From positions 832,001-896,000 of the forward strand of contig OZ241877.1 in assembly GCA_965203095.1 (NCBI GenBank): a stretch of 64,000 nucleotides of DNA, given 5' to 3'. Each line of letters opens with the position of its first letter. Position 1 is the stretch's first letter. Made by a program: the position numbers and the translations under genes. Of the stretch, positions 13,460 through 61,892 are shown piece by piece. Source of the DNA: Bdellovibrionales bacterium (GTDB taxonomy: Bacteria; Bdellovibrionota; Bdellovibrionia; Bdellovibrionales; UBA1609). The notes under the pieces were generated by a model, which was not told the DNA's origin, searched no databases, and saw only the letters and a program-made list of their open reading frames with translations.

Positions 13460-13576
13460 TTCCTGTAAATGTTCAGTATTTCACTGACAGAATTTATTTA
13501 AGTTTCTTTGCCTAAAGGTCCGTCCCATTTCGGGACGGCAATACCTTGGACCCTTATGGGACGGCCTTTAGGCAAA
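13460..13576 (-). repeat. Hairpin element family 1, copy B (hairpin 13507-13576, loop on the minus strand)
   Basis: Reverse complement of the 27-nt loop inside TTTGCCTAAAGG.CCGTCCCAT arms; 13460-13493 matches 725-758 at 33/34. Confidence 0.9.
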
Positions 13577-13608
13577 AACACATAGACTTTCTCAGCTTGC
13601 CCTTGCTA

Positions 13609-13702
13609 AGTTTGCCAAAAAGTTCCCCAAACTTTTTGGCTCCCGTGAAAACGGGAATCCAGAAAAGCCGGTTTTTGTGAAAACAGGGGTTCTTCCCGCA
13701 AA
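13609..13702 (+). repeat. Palindromic element family 2 (TCCCG-N-CGGGAATCC, dRS3/RPE-like), upstream of protease cassette 1
   Basis: Homologous to the reverse complement of 41070-41162. Confidence 0.85.
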
Positions 13703-13735
13703 GCACCTATTTTTATGCCATAAAGGATTTTTTTC

Positions 13736-13763
13736 TACAGTTTTTTAGCCTTTCTGACGATAA
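13736..13763 (+). promoter_or_regulatory. Putative sigma28/FliA promoter
   Basis: TACA-N16-GACGATAA; same spacing as three other candidates in the window. Confidence 0.5.
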
Positions 13764-13824
13764 AGTATTACAGCCCTTTTAAAATTGTGTGTTGTTTTAT
13801 CTCATTTTAAATAAGGAAGGCTTT

Positions 13825-16800
13825 ATGCCCCTTGGTTTTTTGCTTTTTCTTTTTTTTGCCTCTTCCGCCCTTCCTGAAAATGCAAAAATCCCTAAAGCCT
13901 CTTTAAATGAACTAAGCCTTCAAGTGGCAGGGCAAACTCAAAAAACTCTTACAAAAAGTCTTAGCCAGTATATCGCAAAAGCTCTTAAGCCAAAATTAAG
14001 GAAAAGGCTTTATGCTCAGGCAGAAAATCCTCCTGGCAGTTCACCTTTTTTTGAAAAAAGACTTCATCACAAAACACAAACAAATCCCTCTCCCCCCTGC
14101 CATATCAATAGGGAATGTTTAAATCAGTTGCACAATAAGCTCTTAAACAAAAAGGATGAAGATAGCATACATTTTAACTGCCAATGGGCTTATAGGAACA
14201 ATCATCTCTGTTGTAAGGACCCTACGGGCTGTTTCCTCTCTTATGCTACAGATGAGATTAAAGAGGAGTTAGATGATAAGCTCAAGACTCTTGTTGTATC
14301 TCAAGCTTGCTCTCAGGAGGGGATTTCTTCTTTAAACTCTTTTTTGTCTGACTTTCAGGGGGATTTTTGCGAAAAGGGAGTTCGGCATTGTAAAGAGTTT
14401 TGTGAGCATACACTTAGGGATTTTCAGCAAAGTTTTAGGGCTTGTTTTTCCATAAAAAAATCGGTTTCTATAGATGAGGCATTGAGGAGAGCCAGGCAAG
14501 ATCCCTTATGTCACAGGGAAATGAGCAAAGTATCTCAAATTTATAAAGAATTGAGTTTTGATTCTTTGAGTGGTTTTTATAAAAATTTGAAGTGGGAGTC
14601 TTTGTTGAGTTTTCGTGAGGATCTTTCGTTTGAGGATTTTGTGGATTGTGAGCGGGTGAGGGAGGGGAAGGGGGATGAGAGTTTTAAAAGCTCAGCTTTT
14701 TCTATGTGTCAGATGGCAGGAACTATAGAATCAGGAAGGAAACTTCTTGCAAGGGCTAAGGCAAACAGGGAAGGTTCAGAGGAGGAGGAAAACTCAGAGG
14801 AAAACTCAAATGATGAAGATTCTCATCCTGTGAGTGCTACTAGTGGAAATTTTGCGGGCGGAGTTTATCAGCCTTCGGCTTTAGTTCCTACTCCTACAAA
14901 AATTTTTCCTGATGAAGGAAAAGGCTTGCTGGAAGAAGACAAAAAGGATTTGAGTAGGAGAGAGCTTTCCTCTGTAAAAGAACCTTCATTAAAAGAACCT
15001 TTACTTAAAAGCCCAGCAAGTTCTGTTTTAGAAAAAGGCTTATCTTCTACAAAAGCTATAGTGGGAAAAACCCAAGAAAGCTCTCAATCAAATCCTCAAT
15101 CTATTAAAAATCCTCAATCTATTAACAAGGCCAAAGCTCCTTTTCCCCCTCAAGCTGTTAATTCACTGGGATCAGGGGCAAAAATTCCTGAAGGAGCTTA
15201 TAAAGCCCCCTCTTATGAAGATTATTTAGGAGGGAGGTCCCCTTCTTCAAAAATATCTTCTTCAGAAAAGGCGTGGAGAGAATTGTTTGAAGACTCTCCC
15301 CTATCTAAAGAACCCCAAGGTTTTTTTGAAAAAACAGAGGATTTTTGGTTTCATTTTGTTGGGAAACCCCGTCAATACTTCAGTAAGTTGTGGTTTTCTA
15401 AGCTTAGGGGTGGCCCACAAGTGGTCTATCAGATGCTGTTTCAATCGGTATCAGCCCCTCAATTAGAGCCTTTGTTTGTTCAGGAACATCAAAAGTATCT
15501 TCCTCAACCTGTTTTTAAAAGCTATGATCTTCTGAGAGGAAAACCCGCTGGTCTTTTAGTTGAAATCAAATACAAATTGCCCAAGCTTTGTCTTCAGTTG
15601 AGAGGTCCTAAAAAATGTTTCCCAAAAAGAGAGTTTAAGTTAAAATTACAGGTTAAAGAGGATAAAAATATTCCTACCTTTTGCCATTCTGTAAGTAAAG
15701 AGGAAGGGAGGCTTGTAATAGAGGCGGATGATAAAAATGAAGAGCCTTGTTTTTTTAATAGTGAGGAGTTTTTTTCATCAAGGGATTCTCATAAGGTTCA
15801 TAAAAATTCCTCTCAAGATTTTTTTGAAGGCTCAGTTTTTAAGTTGATAGAGTTTCCCACAAGATTTATAGAGCCTGTGGATTTGAAGGAGTATATTGAT
15901 ATTGGTGAGCTGACAAACATTAGTTATCCTTTCAATGTTTTGCTTTCTTTTTCTGGTTTTAATGATCGGGTAGTGAAGGATATTGATGGTGAAAATTCCC
16001 ATGTTCCGGTTCGTATAAACATTGTGGAGTTGAAAAAGGCTTTTTTGCCAGATATGTCTATTCTTCGGTCGATGAGGAATGGGGAAAGAGCTACTCCGGG
16101 GAAGTCTATTTTAAAGCTATTTCGTGCAAGGGAGAAAGAAATCATTTTGCCCAATATGTCTGTTTTAGAAAACAGAGTATCTTGGAAGAAGGGCTTAGGG
16201 AATTGTGAAGATAATGTTGAGGCTTATTTTAAGACAAAGCTTTCGTCCGCAAATATTTTTTGCGTCAATGCTTTAGATCTTTTGCCGTTAAAAATAGGCT
16301 GGACGAGGATTAAAGGAGCTGAAGGAGTTGAGAAAATTGTAGGGGTTAAAGGAACTAAAGAGGCCGAAAGGATTAAAAGAGCAGAGGAAAATCATAAAAG
16401 ATGCATTTTAAGTGAGGAGGAAGCCGAGATAAATGCCAAAATCCCAAACTGGGGGGAAAGCAGTAAAAATGGCTATAAAATGACAGATTTGGAAAAAGTT
16501 CAAGCCTTTGCTTCTTCAGAGGAGATAAGAATTTTTGTGCCCACAGTGTTTCCCATTGCGGAGATCAGCTCAGAGGTTTTAAGGACTACAGTAGGTAAAG
16601 ATTTTGTTATTGGGAGTTGTGATACTTATACAACAGCTCAAGAATATTCGTCTTTTCAAAAAGATTCTGTTCCCGATTTAGATTTTTGCCGGGAGATTTA
16701 TGTTCATCCTAAACTTTATCATCGTTATCAAACTTATGGTTTGTTAAATGACCTTCAACTTTTAGAGGATGAAAGATTTAAAGGCGATTTTAGCAAACTT

Positions 16801-17004
16801 ATTGTTGTGGTTCCAAGGGATTATTTTGTCTACCATGGTATTCAAAGGGAGGGGGAGCATGAACCAGAAGTTTATGGCTGGACCCCTTTGCCTCATTTTA
16901 AACAGACGACTGGGGGGGTATTTGTCCTATTCTGGTTGGGGTTTTCTTGGAGGAATTACTTTTATTCGGGAGGATCAGTTGGATCGAGGGGTTTTAAGCC
17001 ATGA
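13825..17004 (+). CDS. Giant secreted Cys-rich metalloprotease-like protein, N-terminal part (frameshifted at G7 16912-16918)
   Basis: SD AAGGAAGG before ATG 13825, signal peptide, CCxDPxxC domain; paralogous to 37856-41017 (QSVxAPQ.EP, YDLxxGKPAG). Confidence 0.8.
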   Translation: MPLGFLLFLFFASSALPENAKIPKASLNELSLQVAGQTQKTLTKSLSQYIAKALKPKLRKRLYAQAENPPGSSPFFEKRLHHKTQTNPSPPCHINRECLNQLHNKLLNKKDEDSIHFNCQWAYRNNHLCCKDPTGCFLSYATDEIKEELDDKLKTLVVSQACSQEGISSLNSFLSDFQGDFCEKGVRHCKEFCEHTLRDFQQSFRACFSIKKSVSIDEALRRARQDPLCHREMSKVSQIYKELSFDSLSGFYKNLKWESLLSFREDLSFEDFVDCERVREGKGDESFKSSAFSMCQMAGTIESGRKLLARAKANREGSEEEENSEENSNDEDSHPVSATSGNFAGGVYQPSALVPTPTKIFPDEGKGLLEEDKKDLSRRELSSVKEPSLKEPLLKSPASSVLEKGLSSTKAIVGKTQESSQSNPQSIKNPQSINKAKAPFPPQAVNSLGSGAKIPEGAYKAPSYEDYLGGRSPSSKISSSEKAWRELFEDSPLSKEPQGFFEKTEDFWFHFVGKPRQYFSKLWFSKLRGGPQVVYQMLFQSVSAPQLEPLFVQEHQKYLPQPVFKSYDLLRGKPAGLLVEIKYKLPKLCLQLRGPKKCFPKREFKLKLQVKEDKNIPTFCHSVSKEEGRLVIEADDKNEEPCFFNSEEFFSSRDSHKVHKNSSQDFFEGSVFKLIEFPTRFIEPVDLKEYIDIGELTNISYPFNVLLSFSGFNDRVVKDIDGENSHVPVRINIVELKKAFLPDMSILRSMRNGERATPGKSILKLFRAREKEIILPNMSVLENRVSWKKGLGNCEDNVEAYFKTKLSSANIFCVNALDLLPLKIGWTRIKGAEGVEKIVGVKGTKEAERIKRAEENHKRCILSEEEAEINAKIPNWGESSKNGYKMTDLEKVQAFASSEEIRIFVPTVFPIAEISSEVLRTTVGKDFVIGSCDTYTTAQEYSSFQKDSVPDLDFCREIYVHPKLYHRYQTYGLLNDLQLLEDERFKGDFSKLIVVVPRDYFVYHGIQREGEHEPEVYGWTPLPHFKQTTGGVFVLFWLGFSWRNYFYSGGSVGSRGFKP

Positions 17005-17740
17005 GTTGGCTCATCTTTTAGGCCAGCGGAGGGATTTTTATGATCAAGAGGGAAAGCAACAGCAAAAGTGCCGCAGGTTTTCCGGGGATGAGTTGATTCC
17101 TTGTGATGGATACAAAATCCCAAGGGCTTTAGAGGTTAAATTAGATAAGGAGAACAAACAAATTTGGCAATTTATAAGAAATAGATTCAGCATTATGGAC
17201 AATAAAAATGAGCCTGATATTGAAAATGTTTTAGAAATTTTATGGATAGATCGGGAGAGCCATCAGAGAGTGTTTTCACCTTACGCTAAAGTCAGTTCTG
17301 TTCTTTACGAGATTAAAAATTTTAGAAGCCATTTACCTAAAAAGAAGATTAAACCAAAAAAGCTTTTAGTTTCTGGTTTTTACGATAAGAAGAGGAATCG
17401 GTTTTTATCTCCTCAGTTGAGGGTTTTAGAGACGGACGGGATAACTCCTTCTTTATCTAAGGACTGGGATGTGAAGGAAGTGTCTTTAGTTTCATTTCAT
17501 GTAAAAAACAGGGAGGGCTCTCCTTTGCAGACGATTCGTCGTCCTGCTTTTGATGTGGAATCTCGGTTTCTTTATGAGGAGGGGAAGAGTAGAGAATGTG
17601 GTTCCAAGTCTTTTGGTTTATCGATGGTTTCAGCTATTTTTAATTTATCAAAGTTGAAGACGGAGGCAAAGGATCTCAAACTTTCGGTTTTTGGCCCGGA
17701 GGGGGAGGAAATTTTTTCCTCCTTCTTGCCTGAGGATTGA
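16769..17740 (+). CDS. C-terminal part of the same gene, carrying the HELAH zinc motif and Met-turn; real coding starts at about 16913
   Basis: FIREDQLDRGVLSHELAHLLGQRRDFY...SIMD aligns with FVREDQLNQGTVAHELAHTLGQGREFY...SIMN of the intact paralogue. Confidence 0.8.
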   Translation: MKDLKAILANLLLWFQGIILSTMVFKGRGSMNQKFMAGPLCLILNRRLGGYLSYSGWGFLGGITFIREDQLDRGVLSHELAHLLGQRRDFYDQEGKQQQKCRRFSGDELIPCDGYKIPRALEVKLDKENKQIWQFIRNRFSIMDNKNEPDIENVLEILWIDRESHQRVFSPYAKVSSVLYEIKNFRSHLPKKKIKPKKLLVSGFYDKKRNRFLSPQLRVLETDGITPSLSKDWDVKEVSLVSFHVKNREGSPLQTIRRPAFDVESRFLYEEGKSRECGSKSFGLSMVSAIFNLSKLKTEAKDLKLSVFGPEGEEIFSSFLPED

Positions 17741-17775
17741 CAAAATCCCATAAAATAGTTTATAGTTTTTTCATT

Positions 17776-18372
17776 ATGAAGTTCTTTTTTGTTTTATATT
17801 TATTATTTTTTTCTTCAAATGCTATGGCTTGGACCGGGTATTGGGAGAGAGCCACTCGTGGTCCTCTTCGTCAGATTGTGCTTTCTGGTTATTATGTCCC
17901 TGAAGATGAAAAGGAGTTCGAGAAGTCGGAGGAACATTATCGAACATGGGGCTACTTAGAAGAAGGGGAATCTTTTAAAGAAAGCTCACTTTATGGAGGA
18001 GAAGGAAAAGAGCGTTATGGGGGGAAGAGGAAGTATTGTCACAAAGAAACAGATCCTGATGATGAGGGCTATACGGTGATTTTTAATCCTAATTTAAGGG
18101 CAAGGCTTTATGATAAGGAGTGGAATCTTTTAACAGAGGATTATTTGAGGAGTTCTCAGCCGGAAATGTATACTCCATTTACTTGGAGAGTTAGATCTTA
18201 TGTTCCCTACCATCCGGAGGCTTATTATCTAAGAGTTGTAAGACTTGTTGAAAATAAGGAGGTTGCTGTTCTTAGAGAAACAAGAGTTAACACTTTAAAG
18301 TGGTTGAAAAGTGGAGGCAGTAGCTACCGGTATGATAAATTCTTAAAATGCTATCGTGTCTATCACATCTAA
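17776..18372 (+). CDS. Secreted partner protein 1 of the protease cassette (unknown function)
   Basis: Signal peptide MKFFFVLYLLFFSSNAMA; motifs LRARLYD..EDYLR and YVPYHPE..RVVRL shared with two paralogues. Confidence 0.8.
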   Translation: MKFFFVLYLLFFSSNAMAWTGYWERATRGPLRQIVLSGYYVPEDEKEFEKSEEHYRTWGYLEEGESFKESSLYGGEGKERYGGKRKYCHKETDPDDEGYTVIFNPNLRARLYDKEWNLLTEDYLRSSQPEMYTPFTWRVRSYVPYHPEAYYLRVVRLVENKEVAVLRETRVNTLKWLKSGGSSYRYDKFLKCYRVYHI

Positions 18373-18410
18373 CTCCCCTTTTTACTCCTAAAAAATTGTA
18401 GTTTTTGATT

Positions 18411-19047
18411 ATGAAGTTATTTTTTGTTTTCTACTTATTGCTTTTTTCTTTAAATGCTGAGGCTTGGAGAATGCCTTGGGAGAGGGAAGATCCCGGTCCC
18501 CTTCGTGAAATTAGGATTCGAGGTTCTTACACCCCTGAAGATGAAAGGGAGTTAAGGGAATTGAAGGAGTCGGAGGAGTATTACCGTGAAATTGGCTTTT
18601 TAGAGGAAAATGAGGCATTAAAAGATAAATACCCTTTTGTCAATTATCGATATGGAGAGGAGCGCTTTGGTTTTTCTAATAATTATACTGGGTTTAAGTA
18701 TTGCCATACAAAACTTCCGGAAAAGTGGAAATACAAGTTTACTGTGGATCCAAAATTAAGAGACCCGAATTTGAGCACTCCGGATTTAAGGGTCCGGCTT
18801 TATGATGGGAGGGGGAATTTTTTATCAGAGGATCGCTTACGAAGTGGAGAATATGAAATAGGTTCTCGTTTCACTTGGATTGTGGAAGCCTATTCCCTAT
18901 CATCCGGAAGCACGAAAAACAAGAGTTGTGAGATTAGAAGAGGGTAAGGAGATAGTTCTTCGGGAAAGAGGACTATACACTTTAGAGGAGCTTCGCTCTG
19001 AGAAGATCAGTATAGTGTATGATAATGTATGGGACTGTTATATGTAA
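18411..19047 (+). pseudogene. Secreted partner protein 2, frameshifted near 18894
   Basis: Paralogue of 17776-18372; homology continues in another frame as PYHPEARKTRVVRLEEGKEIVLRE...DCYM* to TAA 19047. Confidence 0.8.
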
Positions 19048-36931: not shown

Positions 36932-37699
36932 CTAATAATGGCATTGGTTTTCTTCATTATAATTCCAGCCAGAGATACCAGGGCCACTATGAATTGTATA
37001 TTTCTGAATTAAATAAGATTTGCTGTAGACTACCCCAGAACTCAACACAATCTCTTTATCCCCCTCAAGCCGGACAATGCGAATTTCATGCCCCTCCGGA
37101 TGATAAGGGAGATAGGCGTCCACATGGCGATAGTCTAAAATCCCGTCTTCAGGTTTTATTTGCCAAGATTCTGGAGTCCAAGTTCCTAAAGCATCTGCAA
37201 GCTCTATATAAACCTCAGAGTAGTCCCCCTCATCATCATAAAGCCATGGATCTTCAGCATATTCCCTCTTCATATAAGCCTCAGAGTATCTCCCCTCCTC
37301 ATCATAATCCTCTGGAGAATCCAACCTTAAAAAATCTTCTGCGAGTAAAACACCATTTTTATCATAAAGCCTAATCCTTAAATCCTCCCTATAAATAGGT
37401 TTTTTATCCTTTTCCTTACTATAACAATAAGATCTACCGGAAAAATTAAACTTCTCATCTCCATAGTCTAAAGAATGAGGATATTTTTTAGCAAAATCCT
37501 CACCTTCTTTTAGAAATCCCATTTTAATCTTTTCCTGTTTCAATTCTTCTAATCTTCTCGGATCTGCAGGCCAGTAAGAACCATAAGTAATGATCTCCTC
37601 TAATTCCTTCTTAGGGAAATCGGGCTGTTTTTTCCTCAAACAACTGCATGAAAAAATTAAAATCGAAAACAAAACAGAATAAAGAAAACTCTTTGGCAT
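36932..37699 (-). CDS. Lipoprotein partner of protease cassette 2 (unknown function)
   Basis: SD AGGAGGAG, lipobox-like IFSC; LRIRLYD..EDFLR and YLPYHPE..RIVRL shared with the 17776 and 18411 proteins. Confidence 0.8.
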   Translation of the reverse strand: MPKSFLYSVLFSILIFSCSCLRKKQPDFPKKELEEIITYGSYWPADPRRLEELKQEKIKMGFLKEGEDFAKKYPHSLDYGDEKFNFSGRSYCYSKEKDKKPIYREDLRIRLYDKNGVLLAEDFLRLDSPEDYDEEGRYSEAYMKREYAEDPWLYDDEGDYSEVYIELADALGTWTPESWQIKPEDGILDYRHVDAYLPYHPEGHEIRIVRLEGDKEIVLSSGVVYSKSYLIQKYTIHSGPGISGWNYNEENQCHY

Positions 37700-37730
37700 T
37701 ACTCCTCCTTTTTTATCTTTTCGCCACTCC

Positions 37731-37843
37731 GTCATTCCCGTGAAAACGGGAATCCATAAAAACTTGCTTTACAGGAAAACCACCGTTTTCACAAAAACTG
37801 GCTCTTCTGGATTCCCGCTCAAGGCGGGAATCACGGACGACTA
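37731..37843. repeat. Inverted pair of family-2 palindromes between protease and partner
   Basis: GTCATTCCCGTGAAAACGGGAATCC (37731-37755) and GGATTCCCGCTCAAGGCGGGAATCAC (37809-37834), ending in GGACGACTA. Confidence 0.88.
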
Positions 37844-37855
37844 ATTATTGTAGCC

Positions 37856-40800
37856 CTATTCTTGTTTTTTGTCCATACTCTTTGGTTTTATTTCCGGTTT
37901 TTTACTTTTTTTCTGCTTTTTCTTTTTCTTCTTAGGGATTGTAGTAGTCAAAATAAGTTTTTTTTGAGGGTTTAAAACCACAAGCCTTAACTTATCCCTC
38001 TCTATTCCCTCCGGTAAATCAAAAACAGCTCTCAAAGGGGAAAAATCAAAAGCTCGCTTTTCTGACCGACCATTCCTATAAAAAATCTCCATCTCCATTT
38101 TTAAAATCGGCCTTTTGATCTCCTTTAAAAGGCTTTGCTCCCTCCATAACTGGAAAAACAATGTGGGAAGTTTAGTATTCTGGGTCCTGGGATAAAAAGA
38201 GGGGGTTTTAAGAGCTGTTCTCCTAACCCTAATTTTAGGCACAACAAAAGAATTTTCATTAGGGTTATAAAAACCAGATATGATAATGGCCTTTCTTTTC
38301 TGATCTTCTCTGTGAAAAGAGTCGGTTTGGCTAAACAAATTTATTCTGGGATCTATCACTGTTCCGTATTTATGCGATGTCCAAAAGATCTTTTGATGAG
38401 TGTCACGGTCTATCCATTGATCTTTAATTTCGCCTTGATTATTCATAATGCTCCAGCGGTTTTTGACAAACTCCCAAAACTGCCTGCCATTTTTCTGCCA
38501 AGCCCTTAAACCCTGAGGGATTTTGTATTTAAAACAAGCCTTAAGAGACCTCCCCTTAAACTCGCGACAATACTCTATTGGCCCTGTTTCTTTCTTGTAA
38601 AACTCTCTTCCTTGGCCTAAGGTATGAGCCAGCTCATGGGCTACTGTTCCCTGATTCAGCTGATCTTCTCTTACAAAAGCCACATTCCAACTCCCACCAA
38701 AAAAATCTCGTATCCAGTTGAATGTAATATAATCCCCCGTATTCAAAATCTCCCAAGCTGGGCGAATCACCAATCCTGCCACTGGATCGCCTTCTCTATC
38801 CACCTTCTTATTAAAAATAAAAAAATCCTTAGAAACAATGGCAATAATCTTTCCATAACCAAGAGCTGAGCGAATATTCTCCACATTCCCAACAGCCCAC
38901 AACAAAGTCTTAGTTATATCCCCTCTATACTGGGCTGGCCCCGCATTGCAAGAACCATAGATATAATCATAACTTTTCTCTCCTGATTTATACCTCAAAA
39001 CAGAAGATTGGATTCCTGAAATAGGAAACATGGAAAGGATATAACTTATCTCATCCGAACGAGCAAAATCCCTTAATTTCTGAAGAGAAACTATGTCATA
39101 ACCTGTCTTTTTATCAGGGCTTGCATAGCAGTTTTTTCCACCATATATCCGGGTAAAAGCCAATTTTAAACTATGGGTTTTAATAATTTTTATTTGAAAA
39201 CTCTGTTGCCTGTGGCAAGATTCATTGTTTGTATTTATGCCATCAACAGGAAAAAGAGTAAGTTGGATATGATGATTAAAATTGGCTCTTTTTAACCAAG
39301 CCTCCTGCATAGGGAGAGGGAAAAACTTATAAGATCCTTCGGCTTTTAGATCATCTCTTGTAAAAGAGCAAATATCCTCCTCCCCCTCTTTCATTACCCC
39401 TTTCTGGGGTTCATGAAAACATGTTTTGTAATATTCCTTCTTGTTGCCAGAAATCAATAAATCAATGGCAAATTCTTTTTGCCTGTTCATCCCACCCCTC
39501 CTCAACTCCAGTAAAACACCAGCAGGTTTCCCCATTGCTAAATCATAATTGTTGTAAGGTTTTTTTGCTTGGCTTTTCATTGGTTCTATTTGAGGAGCTT
39601 TTACACTTTGATAAAGGATAGCCGATCGGAGTTTTGGCATAGAGACAGGGCATTTTTTTGAGTTGGTATCCGCTTGAGCCAGCAAAATGGGCTTTTCTTG
39701 CTCTAACTCACTTGTGCGACTTCCCCTTAAATTTTCAGAAGAATAAGCCTCAATCTCACCAGAGCTTTTATGGGATATTTTAGAAAAGCTGACTTGACCT
39801 GCTACCTTCCTATTTCTATTTCTATTCCTCCTCCGGTATTGGGAACTTTGACGACTCCTCATTCTCATAGAAGATCTCTTTTTCTTATTAGAAACTCTTA
39901 ACTTTTGAGAAAGTTTTTTCCTTGCTTGAGAAAGCTTTTTTTTGGAACTCTTTTTTGATTTTTTTGATTTTAAACTTTGGTTGGACTGGCTGGCCTTTTT
40001 CCCTTTCCCCTCAAGCTTTTGAGAAACCAAGGCTTTGCTCTTTTTTTGAGCTGGTTTAGAGTTTTTTGACTTAGAGGCAGAATGAGACTTTGAAGTAGAG
40101 GCTTTTTGAGCTGTTTTAGAGTTTTTTGCTTGATCTGCCTCTTTTTTTTGCCTTTCAGCCAGTATTTTCTCTAACCGGGCCTGCTCCTCAGCCTCCTTTG
40201 CCCTCAATTTTTCCTCTTTTTGCTTTCTCAGCCTCTCTTCTTCCTCCTCCTTCGCTCTTCTTTCCTCATCCATTTTTTGACTTTGAGCTTGACGGCACAT
40301 ACTCAAAGCAAAATTGTTGAGGTAATGAGCCGTCTTTAAACTCCTAATCCCCTCACAACGAACAATATCCTTTGCCTTAAGATCTTCTCTCAAAAGGGAT
40401 TTCTTATCTAAACTCTGTTTTTTGTATTTTTCCGCTAAACGGATCATGGCCTCATTACAAAACTTTTGATCAGTTGTTTGATTAGGGGCTGGGTTTTTTG
40501 CCTTCTCTAAAACTTCATCAATAGAGTATTTATTGGGAATGGCAAAACAACTCCTAAAATAATTTTTAAAAGCCTCTAATCTGTTCTCACAATCCATCTC
40601 GCAATTTTCCACCCCAAGATTGCAAACATTAGATTGAATATTGGATAAAGAGCTTATGAGGCCAGAAAGTTGGTTTAACTGGCAAGAAAGAATATCCCCG
40701 CCCGATTCCTCCACACGGCTTAAGCTTTCAGTTTTTAACTGTTGGGCCAAATCCGAACCATAATGTTCCTCACAATCAGAAGGATCTCTGCAACAAAATT

Positions 40801-41017
40801 TAATGTTTTCATAAGTGTTCTCGCAGTATTGATAAATCCCCTTACTCTCTTTTTTGTTTAAAATAATGTTGTATAAATCCTTCCAACATTCCTTCTCCAC
40901 TGTGCAAGTGTAGCCGGAAGATTTTGTTGGAGTTGTTTTAAAATCTTGAGCTGATGATAAAGCAATGAAAGGGATAAGAAGGAAGGAGAGACCGGAAAAA
41001 ATATAAGGAGAGGTCAT
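37856..41017 (-). CDS. Giant secreted Cys-rich zinc metalloprotease-like protein (intact, 1053 aa)
   Basis: Signal peptide, CCRDPSDC domain, charged coiled coil and K/S/R-rich linker, HELAHTLG at 38624-38638, SIMN Met-turn. Confidence 0.82.
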   Translation of the reverse strand: MTSPYIFSGLSFLLIPFIALSSAQDFKTTPTKSSGYTCTVEKECWKDLYNIILNKKESKGIYQYCENTYENIKFCCRDPSDCEEHYGSDLAQQLKTESLSRVEESGGDILSCQLNQLSGLISSLSNIQSNVCNLGVENCEMDCENRLEAFKNYFRSCFAIPNKYSIDEVLEKAKNPAPNQTTDQKFCNEAMIRLAEKYKKQSLDKKSLLREDLKAKDIVRCEGIRSLKTAHYLNNFALSMCRQAQSQKMDEERRAKEEEEERLRKQKEEKLRAKEAEEQARLEKILAERQKKEADQAKNSKTAQKASTSKSHSASKSKNSKPAQKKSKALVSQKLEGKGKKASQSNQSLKSKKSKKSSKKKLSQARKKLSQKLRVSNKKKRSSMRMRSRQSSQYRRRNRNRNRKVAGQVSFSKISHKSSGEIEAYSSENLRGSRTSELEQEKPILLAQADTNSKKCPVSMPKLRSAILYQSVKAPQIEPMKSQAKKPYNNYDLAMGKPAGVLLELRRGGMNRQKEFAIDLLISGNKKEYYKTCFHEPQKGVMKEGEEDICSFTRDDLKAEGSYKFFPLPMQEAWLKRANFNHHIQLTLFPVDGINTNNESCHRQQSFQIKIIKTHSLKLAFTRIYGGKNCYASPDKKTGYDIVSLQKLRDFARSDEISYILSMFPISGIQSSVLRYKSGEKSYDYIYGSCNAGPAQYRGDITKTLLWAVGNVENIRSALGYGKIIAIVSKDFFIFNKKVDREGDPVAGLVIRPAWEILNTGDYITFNWIRDFFGGSWNVAFVREDQLNQGTVAHELAHTLGQGREFYKKETGPIEYCREFKGRSLKACFKYKIPQGLRAWQKNGRQFWEFVKNRWSIMNNQGEIKDQWIDRDTHQKIFWTSHKYGTVIDPRINLFSQTDSFHREDQKRKAIIISGFYNPNENSFVVPKIRVRRTALKTPSFYPRTQNTKLPTLFFQLWREQSLLKEIKRPILKMEMEIFYRNGRSEKRAFDFSPLRAVFDLPEGIERDKLRLVVLNPQKKLILTTTIPKKKKKKQKKSKKPEIKPKSMDKKQE

Positions 41018-41023
41018 ATAGTT

Positions 41024-41051
41024 TTATCGGTTTATTAGGAGTAAAACTTTA
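41024..41051 (-). promoter_or_regulatory. Putative sigma28/FliA promoter; transcript apparently leaderless
   Basis: TAAAGTTT-N12-ACCGATAA ending 6 nt before ATG 41017. Confidence 0.65.
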
Positions 41052-41069
41052 GGTTTTTTTTTGCAAAGA

Positions 41070-41175
41070 TTTGTGGGAGAACCCCTGTTTTTACAAGAGC
41101 TGGCTCTTCTGGATTCCCGCTTTCACGGGAGCCAGAAAGTCCGGGGGACTTTCTGGCAAACTCATGGGAATGACT
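41070..41175 (-). repeat. Family-2 palindromic element upstream of protease cassette 2
   Basis: Inverted homologue of 13609-13702; GTCATTCCC...TCCCGTGAAAGCGGGAATCC with an inserted hairpin at 41131-41157. Confidence 0.85.
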
Positions 41176-44047: not shown

Positions 44048-44139
44048 AAATTATATTTTCGCTTTGAGCCTTCACAGGTTCAAACTCAACATATTTGAGG
44101 GCCGACACATAGGCCGACCCTCAAAAGCAGTTGTTTTCA

Positions 44140-44459
44140 GGATAGGCGATAAGCCGGATTCTGTCTGCCTTTTTCCTACTAAAAAAGGGAAACGGTGATT
44201 CCTCTAAGAGTTTTGTTGCCAAAACCCTTTTGCGATCAACCCGAAGGCACTGCCTCTTGGCTCAGGATAGCCTTCCTATTTGATCTCGCTCCGGGCAGAG
44301 TTTAGCTGATTTCACTCCAGCACCGGTAAAAACCGGCCGGATATTCTTTCTGTTCCACTGGTCCGCGCCTTTCGGCGGAAGGCGGTTAGCCTTTGCCTTG
44401 CCAAAGGAGTCCGGACTTTCCTCTTTGCCCTTATGGGCAAAGCCACCGTTTGCCTATCC
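44140..44459 (-). ncRNA. rnpB: RNase P RNA (class A)
   Basis: Minus strand has GAGGAAAGTCCGGACTCC near the 5' end and ACAGAATCCGGCTTATC near the 3' end; P1 helix GGATAGGC/GCCTATCC. Confidence 0.95.
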
Positions 44460-44520
44460 AAAAAAAGCCTATCAGAACATAGCCAAAAAAGCAACCAAAA
44501 CATCTCCCACTTCTAAAGGC

Positions 44521-61864: not shown

Positions 61865-61892
61865 TAAAGCTTTTTTGTTAAATTGCCGATAG
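61865..61892 (+). promoter_or_regulatory. Putative sigma28/FliA promoter
   Basis: TAAA-N16-GCCGATAG, 10 nt before the ATG. Confidence 0.6.

Follow-up and report, generated by a model that had tools for sequence, protein, structure and literature searches.

A multi-copy family of predicted metzincin-fold proteases with linked exported partner proteins in a Bdellovibrionales genome

What does an uncultured relative of Bdellovibrio do with a set of very large exported proteins, encoded directly ahead of one or more smaller exported proteins? The question is raised by two loci in a 64-kb stretch of its chromosome (positions 832001-896000), here called the window, to whose own numbering coordinates refer unless chromosomal positions are given. 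The genome comprises 1.78 Mb plus a 17-kb second contig, with 38% G+C and an estimated completeness of 90%. The original prediction, made from the sequence of the window, took the two loci for copies of one cassette, at 13609-19047 on the plus strand and 36932-41175 on the minus strand, composed of a palindromic element, a sigma-28-like promoter, a metzincin-like protease gene and genes for exported partners. The two are confirmed here as a homologous pair at these positions, but the cassette is not limited to two copies, since eight loci were found in the genome. For the large protein the prediction is a zinc metalloprotease of an undescribed family with the metzincin fold, and the protease and partner families are confined to one genus.

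The large protein

Both large proteins begin with a hydrophobic, signal-like N-terminus and carry, in this order, the motif CC[KR]DP..C, a low-complexity linker, QSVxAPQxEP, YDLxxGKPAG, HELAHxLGQxR[DE]FY and SIM. The complete motif set reported in the original prediction is thus present in both copies, although copy 1 is not, as had been thought, one open reading frame (ORF) of more than 1000 residues, because its HELAH lies in a second frame beyond a run of seven G (G7). Copy 2 is intact (37856-41017, minus strand, 1053 residues). Its signal-like N-terminus is followed by a Cys-rich domain (about residues 30-250), a K/E/S-rich linker (about 250-450), an immunoglobulin-like (Ig-like) domain (458-614), a catalytic domain of predicted metzincin fold (612-890), a beta-sandwich (908-1026) and a K-rich tail.

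The statement that no named family could be recognised agrees with the library searches. No Pfam or NCBIfam model reached its cut-off in six proteins of the window, and no Pfam model did so in any of 43 family members or 26 distant members. A search of PDB sequences with the family profile returned nothing significant, the best protease-related rows being fragilysin (E 0.35) and an astacin (E 2.2).

The fold was predicted with AlphaFold for residues 450-1053 of copy 2 from an alignment of 43 sequences (model numbering plus 449 gives protein numbering). The model has a mean predicted local distance difference test score (pLDDT) of 83.4 and a predicted template modelling score (pTM) of 0.84. Its three parts are an Ig-like sandwich (model residues 9-165), a catalytic domain spanning about 163-441, whose active-site helix occupies 342-350, and a sandwich at the C-terminus (459-577). 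The top Foldseek match was StcE (3ujz, E 4.4e-7), which VIA-align superposed across all three parts with a Z-score of 12.2 (348 residues aligned, root-mean-square deviation (rmsd) 6.6, 9% identity). The other VIA-align matches concern the catalytic domain: adamalysin 1dth (Z 11.3; rmsd 3.6, 173 aligned), archaemetzincin (Z 10.9), ADAMTS-5 (Z 10.4), 6o38_A (Z 10.3; rmsd 3.2, 166 aligned), which we take to come from the CpaA/CpaB entry, ulilysin (Z 9.3), fragilysin (Z 8.8), InhA2 (Z 7.9) and the igalysins (Z 7.3). These matches, with Z 10-11.3 to adamalysin, archaemetzincin, ADAMTS and ADAM proteins and 8-9 to ulilysin and fragilysin, place a metzincin catalytic fold in an StcE-like multidomain setting in the predicted model, which bears out the metzincin-like assignment of the original prediction.

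The H, E, H and G of the metzincin motif HExxHxxG/N are invariant in the 43 sequences and in a further set of 18 aligned ones. Counting from the second histidine (His2) in the 101 family members that hold HExxHxxG, the family motif reads HExxHxxGQx[KR][ED]xY, with Q at +4 in 97 members, K or R at +6 in 96, an acidic residue at +7 in 100 (E 86, D 14) and Y at +9 in 100. The usual third zinc ligand of metzincins, a His or Asp at +6, never occurs. The earlier observation of an Arg at this place, with D or E one residue later, holds, and it matches the spacing of the igalysins (MEROPS family M64), for which a motif HExxHxxxGxxD is described with a zinc-binding Asp at His2+7, then a Glu, and a Tyr at +9 (PMC12237041). 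By analogy, the Glu or Asp at His2+7 would be the third zinc ligand in the present family and the Tyr at +9 would act as in igalysins; since igalysins use +7 as a ligand, function is likely kept despite the K/R at +6. The Met of SIM (model M409), expected for a Met-turn, is conserved in at least 90% of the 43 sequences and is followed in the model by a helix at 422-435. The predicted active-site residues of copy 2 are H794, E795, H798, E805 and Y807, together with M858.

The Cys-rich N-terminal domain, marked by CC.DP..C and further conserved Cys, is also found in proteins of about 755 residues in genome G002 of the same genus and in three paralogues of about 800 residues in the present genome. 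It has no match in Pfam or NCBIfam and no usable match in the ESM Atlas. The three paralogues are near-identical exported proteins (chromosome 518021-520423, 1590717-1593104 and 200974-203391) in which the Cys-rich module lies mid-protein and the C-terminal region is K/E/R-rich and unrelated. In P0113 (1224 residues), a distant member from a metagenome, the C-terminal end consists of ankyrin-like repeats, which score 27.0 bits for Ank_2 where the cut-off is 27.3. They hint that some members, at least, have a target in eukaryotes.

Loci, partners and genomic setting

The eight paralogous loci, found with tblastn and stop-to-stop ORF maps, occupy about 2% of the genome, lie among housekeeping genes and fall into types A and B. 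The large gene is intact in three, which span 1053-1295 residues: A2 (1295 residues stop to stop, two partners), A4 (1180 residues stop to stop, two partners) and B1, which is copy 2 of the window (one partner). The other five are disrupted. The gene is frameshifted in A1, which is copy 1 of the window (two partners, the second broken); in A3 (one partner) its linker region is interrupted by an IS630-type insertion with a DDE_3/helix-turn-helix (HTH) transposase gene at chromosome 1265852-1266877; in A5 (one partner) only the last 300 residues or so are left; B2 (one partner) has an in-frame stop and a damaged N-terminus, and B3 (one partner) a frameshift and a stop. With five of eight copies disrupted, cassette 1 included, the family is either decaying or toggled by mutation and recombination.

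The linkage of partner to protease, for which the original prediction had proposed a check, was found throughout. All 11 partner genes of the genome fall inside the eight loci, directly downstream of the protease gene and on the same strand, with gaps of -4 to about 120 nucleotides, and 10 of the 11 are open. Adjacency was also seen in genomes G001, G005, G007 and G008. The paralogues are mosaics: A1 and A3 are 99% identical in the C-terminal 275 or so residues of the protease and 43% in the partner, while A1 and A4 are 54% identical in the protease and 89% in the partner. Between types A and B, protease and partner diverge in step.

A word-indexed search with the protease region returned 50 relatives, none of which had a precomputed Pfam domain and for which the only name was hypothetical protein, from a Bdellovibrionales metagenome-assembled genome. 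A HMMER profile scan of 1.84 billion representatives gave 197 proteins, including many fragments, with E <= 0.001. Eight of the nine other genomes of the genus match, as against none of 15 genomes from other genera of the same family and none of 16 from the same order. The catalytic region was matched, in multiple copies, in G001, G005, G007 and G008; G002, G004 and G009 hold the Cys-rich N-terminal domain only, and G003 holds that domain and one short fragment. Partner matches occur in the same four genomes as the catalytic region, beside protease genes wherever the contigs show it, with one weak match in G004. The partner was not matched in G002, G003, G006 or G009, and thus is missing from two of the genomes that have the N-terminal domain alone (G002 and G009). 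At one locus of G008 (L023, G008:C1:1228500-1235200) the protease is encoded as two adjacent ORFs (617 and 363 residues), followed by four partner-like ORFs of 184, 187, 308 and 176 residues.

The partners share the motifs LRxRLYD..ED.LR and Y.PYHPE..R.VRL, both already seen in the original prediction, and two invariant Cys. They could be assigned to no known family, and none of 21 reached a Pfam cut-off. By inspection, type B partners start with a lipobox-like ..FSC, and type A partners with a cleavable-looking signal ending in ..AMA/W or ..AEA/W. A model of the partner of cassette 2 (pLDDT 84) is a beta-sandwich with helical inserts. It gave no Foldseek match at E <= 0.001 and no usable match in the ESM Atlas. 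The three best VIA-align matches were the N-terminal domains of the igalysins BF3526 (twice) and BACOVA_00663, at Z 7.3, 7.2 and 7.2, with the next match at Z 5.5; about 105 residues were aligned over chain residues 27-156, the whole N-terminal domain. This domain of BF3526 is described as flanking the active site and is proposed to limit the access of substrates; expression of the catalytic domain without it is reported to have failed (PMC12402451).

In cassette 1 the first frame of the large gene runs from a likely ATG at 13825, with AAGGAAGG ahead, to 17004 (ORF 13789-17004, 1071 residues, plus strand). It covers the signal-like N-terminus, the Cys-rich domain, the linker, the Ig-like domain and the beginning of the catalytic domain. 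Homology stops at the G7 run (16912-16918) and the sequence beyond is out of frame. The second frame (16769-17740, plus strand), homologous from about 16919, holds HELAHLLGQRRDFY, SIM and the C-terminal beta-sandwich. At the equivalent site A3 and A5 have G6, A2 has G5 and A4 has G4, all in frame, so that copy 1 has one extra G. Among four public read sets (X1-X4), contigs spanning the site came from X3 and X4 only, and these have the sequence differences of A3, with G6, instead of the letters of copy 1; the G7 may be genuine, or reflect a mixed population or an assembly error. Partner 1 (17737-18372, plus strand, likely start MKFFF at 17776) is intact and has a signal-like N-terminus. Partner 2 (18405-19047, plus strand) is frameshifted near 18890, at a site that is not homopolymeric, into a head (18405-18947) and a tail (18892-19047). 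The two tandem partners and remnant of a third that had been described for this cassette are accordingly one intact and one frameshifted gene, the supposed remnant being the tail of the second. Between pstS and cassette 1, at 13510-13577, lies a long, near-perfect inverted repeat (TGCCTAAAGGTCCGTCCCATTTCGGGACGG ... GGGACGGCCTTTAGGCA), distinct from the dispersed hairpin repeat treated below. In cassette 2, the partner (36932-37735, minus strand, a 267-residue ORF with a likely start MPKSF at 37699) has a lipoprotein-type signal, ..LIFSC, on inspection.

A sigma-28 (FliA)-like motif precedes both large genes, as had been predicted: TACAGTTT-N12-GACGATAA at 13736-13763 (plus strand) and TAAAGTTT-N12-ACCGATAA at 41051-41024 (minus strand), the latter ending 6 nucleotides ahead of the ATG. 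A search of the chromosome for TAAAGTTT-N10-12-GCCGATAA with at most two mismatches gave 49 sites, compared with 6, 8 and 9 in three block shuffles, and the motif stands just before the start of five of the eight loci (A1, A2, A4, B1 and B3). Both protease loci of G007 are preceded by it with one mismatch; at neither of the two G008 loci was it found at up to three mismatches. In 13 of 21 motif sites examined, the -10 element ends only 5-10 nucleotides before a start codon, mostly of ORFs with a signal-like N-terminus, which suggests a regulon of secreted proteins whose transcripts have no leader or a very short one. The window holds a further site at 61865-61892.

A FliA-type sigma factor is present in the genome (254 bits against a cut-off of 190), as is the type II secretin GspD (455 bits). 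Neither flagellin nor FlhA was found in the genome, at its estimated completeness. Flagellar type III export, a candidate raised by the sigma-28 motif, was rejected because of these two negatives and the Sec-type N-termini of the proteins. In Bdellovibrio bacteriovorus, 92 of the 140 promoters of the attack phase are reported to be of FliA type (TTAAG-N16-CCGATA), and genes for proteases and surface proteins are among those that they serve (PMC3627812).

The elements of about 95 nucleotides upstream of the two cassettes (13609-13706, plus strand; 41070-41162, minus strand) are homologous, as claimed, and the first hairpin keeps its pairing through two compensatory double changes. Both are more stable than shuffled sequences (z -2.2 and -4.4). 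They are not, however, part of the cassette: 92 copies were counted in the genome in a first nhmmer round and 140 in a second (76 plus, 64 minus), and blastn shows dozens of partial copies. The palindrome is a genome-wide element resembling repetitive extragenic palindromes (REP) or miniature inverted-repeat transposable elements (MITE). Copies precede six of the eight loci, and in type B loci others separate protease and partner, for instance two partial ones at 37733-37829 (chromosome 869733-869829) in cassette 2. A cassette-specific regulatory RNA was rejected for it because of this dispersal; an Rfam scan of the window matched RNase P only and gave nothing at the upstream elements. At chromosome 1608859-1609079, the 21-nucleotide core hairpin of the repeat (..CTCCCGTGAAAACGGGAAT..) stands in eight head-to-tail copies with a 28-bp period. 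The RNase P RNA is an ordinary bacterial class A one (44134-44461, minus strand, 206 bits).

Possible roles of the partner

The reading that we prefer, while giving it slightly less than an even chance, is that the large exported protein is a metzincin-fold protease to which the downstream exported partner or partners bind in the envelope, blocking or escorting it until release. For the partner, the reading draws on the strict gene linkage, on the lack of partner matches in G002 and G009, on the resemblance of its model to the gating domain of BF3526 and on a G007 protein, described below, that joins a partner-like region to the C-terminal domain of the protease. The protease would be exported by Sec and then by the type II system, and its expression may follow a FliA programme resembling the attack phase of Bdellovibrio. 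It could be directed at proteins, glycoproteins perhaps, on the surface of a host or prey. The partner might act in trans as a lid, inhibitor or chaperone, by analogy with the action of CpaB on CpaA.

Several points weigh against this reading. At the zinc site the K/R stands at +6, so that zinc binding by the acidic residue at +7 is something we infer. Type A partners have a cleavable-looking signal in place of a membrane anchor. Z-scores of 7-8 are common among unrelated models, which makes the resemblance of the partner to the igalysin domain a lead rather than proof, and a profile comparison of partner and protease with hhalign revealed no relation. Tandem divergent partners (two each in A1, A2 and A4, 38-53% identical, and four in G008) favour an immunity array over a dedicated chaperone. 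The identities of type A proteases and partners are uncoupled (Spearman 0.07, 10 pairs), and the five broken copies may mean that the system is dispensable.

The partner arrays are the strongest point for immunity, and hence for a polymorphic toxin aimed at bacteria, in which the conserved Cys-rich domain and linker would deliver a variable C-terminal protease toxin and the extra partners would be orphan immunities directed at the toxins of relatives. A Sec-dependent precedent exists in MafB/MafI of Neisseria, the Cys-rich module is shared with other C-terminal regions (in six proteins of about 755 residues in G002 and the three paralogues of about 800 residues here), and the paralogues are mosaic. 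We nevertheless consider this explanation unlikely. No known toxin-trafficking domain (Pfam, NCBIfam) or dedicated delivery system was found in or beside the loci, with their housekeeping flanks; the protease region is invariant in kind, with two types of one family, and its predicted fold is like that of host-directed secreted proteases. The co-variation expected of toxin and immunity protein is not seen within type A, and these uncoupled identities disfavour tight cognate pairs. The ankyrin-like repeats of one member, just under the Pfam cut-off, likewise hint at a eukaryotic rather than a bacterial target.

The partner could also leave the cell together with the protease, as a subunit, an adaptor or a surface anchor, and set the location of the enzyme or its choice of substrate, which we judge about as improbable as the toxin. 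The gene after one protease in G007 (G007:C1:47375-48730; L022:3876-5231) encodes a 451-residue exported protein whose central part resembles the partner profile (E 1e-4 and 57% probability in hhalign) and whose last 150 residues are 41% identical (E 1e-28) to the C-terminal beta-sandwich of the upstream protease, as if this were a common docking or export module. (A second gene of this fusion kind lies at about G007:C1 177400-178400.) Type B partners, being lipoprotein-like, could tether the enzyme, and divergent tandem partners could supply alternative specificities. On the other hand, the closest structural analogue of the partner gates the active site and does not anchor the enzyme, and the large protein search found no longer proteins holding the partner domain, which is weak evidence.

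It is somewhat less probable that the family is mainly a relic undergoing decay as the genome shrinks, in which case the disrupted copies would be plain pseudogenes, the G7 run no switch and the regulation nothing special. The genome is small, and the five disruptions are all different, comprising the G7 frameshift of A1, the IS630-type insertion of A3, the truncation of A5, the in-frame stop of B2 and the frameshift plus stop of B3; the break in the second partner of cassette 1 fits as well, as it lies outside any homopolymer. Three copies are nevertheless intact, all partner genes but this one are open, multiple copies are kept in four other genomes of the genus, and the catalytic motif is near-invariant across 101 members.

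A last and quite improbable proposal is a split protease, in which the beta-sandwich lid fused to the enzyme in igalysins has become a separate, exported and exchangeable protein, recombination among the eight loci shuffles lids and bodies, a sigma-28 factor without a flagellum switches them on for attack on host or prey from near-leaderless transcripts, and the partner sets substrate access or specificity instead of merely inhibiting.

Under the preferred reading of a protease held by an envelope partner, the regulation of a metzincin in trans could be tested on the linked partner. Multi-copy secreted proteases with sigma-28-like promoters are, moreover, good candidates for the machinery of predatory or parasitic contact in an uncultured Bdellovibrio relative.

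Comparison with known systems

When the C-terminal region of the large protein is compared in full, the closest structure is that of StcE of Escherichia coli O157:H7 (MEROPS M66, PDB 3ujz), a mucin-type glycoprotease. The order of an Ig-like domain, a metzincin catalytic part and one more beta domain is common to the two, as are Sec export and a type II secretin in the genome, the layout and the export being predicted in the present case. The two differ in that there is no sequence similarity and no Pfam match, the third ligand here is not a His at +6, the Cys-rich N-terminal domain and the linker occur only here, and glycoprotease activity is known for StcE. The M66 motif is of the HEVGHNYGLGH type. 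The present proteins cannot be placed in M66, since Pfam stayed below its cut-off in the six window proteins and the 43 members and the motif differs; the overall fold alone is similar. StcE is not known to have a linked partner.

CpaA of Acinetobacter (M72) with CpaB, its dedicated type II chaperone, resembles the present pair in being a secreted metzincin with Ig-like domains, whose gene is directly followed by that of a small envelope protein, and the catalytic domains match at the Z of 10.3 given above. CpaB is described as membrane-anchored and as binding CpaA in the periplasm with its tail in the active site, being required for CpaA secretion; CpaA, like StcE, is a type II substrate (PMC4713064, PMC7542363). 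Its transmembrane anchor and SRPBCC-type fold set CpaB apart from the partners here, which are predicted beta-sandwiches with a lipoprotein-type or cleavable-type signal, often stand in tandem and show no detectable homology to it. Of the features of type II chaperones listed by Harding et al. (2016), a gene next to that of the effector was found for all 11 partners, a shared transcript being likely; as to the N-terminal membrane anchor with a periplasmic domain, inspection shows the lipobox-like start of type B and the cleavable-looking one of type A.

The igalysins (M64) compared were the T. ramosa IgA protease, BF3526 (4df9, 9qdi) and BACOVA_00663 (3p1v). The family shares with them the acidic residue at His2+7 and the Tyr at +9 (HExxHxxxGxxDEY there, HExxHxxGQx[KR][ED]xY here), and the structure closest to the partner model is the beta-sandwich at the N-terminus of BF3526-type igalysins, which gates their active site. 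One of the 26 distant members has a sub-threshold Pfam M64 match (E 0.0017). The differences are that Gly stands at +3 here and at +4 there, that the Met-turn reads S-I-M here and C-I-M there, that the catalytic domains match only at Z 7.3, below the adamalysins, and that the beta-sandwich is a separate gene product here. With Ser as the first residue of its Met-turn, the family lacks the structural zinc site that igalysins build on Cys, and none of the 43 members reaches the Pfam M64 cut-off, so that the family falls outside M64.

Serralysins with their inhibitors (AprA/AprI, PrtA/Inh) likewise pair a secreted metzincin with a small exported inhibitor that is encoded next to it and protects the periplasm of the producer. 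They use type I secretion, the canonical HExxHxxGxxH and a small beta-barrel inhibitor. The gene arrangement is similar, and there is no homology to the present family.

In the libraries and literature searched, no description was found of the protease family, the zinc-motif variant, the partner family, the copy number or the flagellum-less sigma-28 setting. The secreted metzincin with a linked envelope partner is, as a kind, known already. Metzincins are well studied, yet this family is invisible to Pfam, NCBIfam and PDB sequence searches, and it has a zinc-motif variant of its own, in which the putative acidic ligand is shifted by one residue as in igalysins while Gly keeps the canonical place. 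Compared with the igalysins, its partner may also illustrate how a domain can be part of the enzyme in one family and a protein by itself in another.

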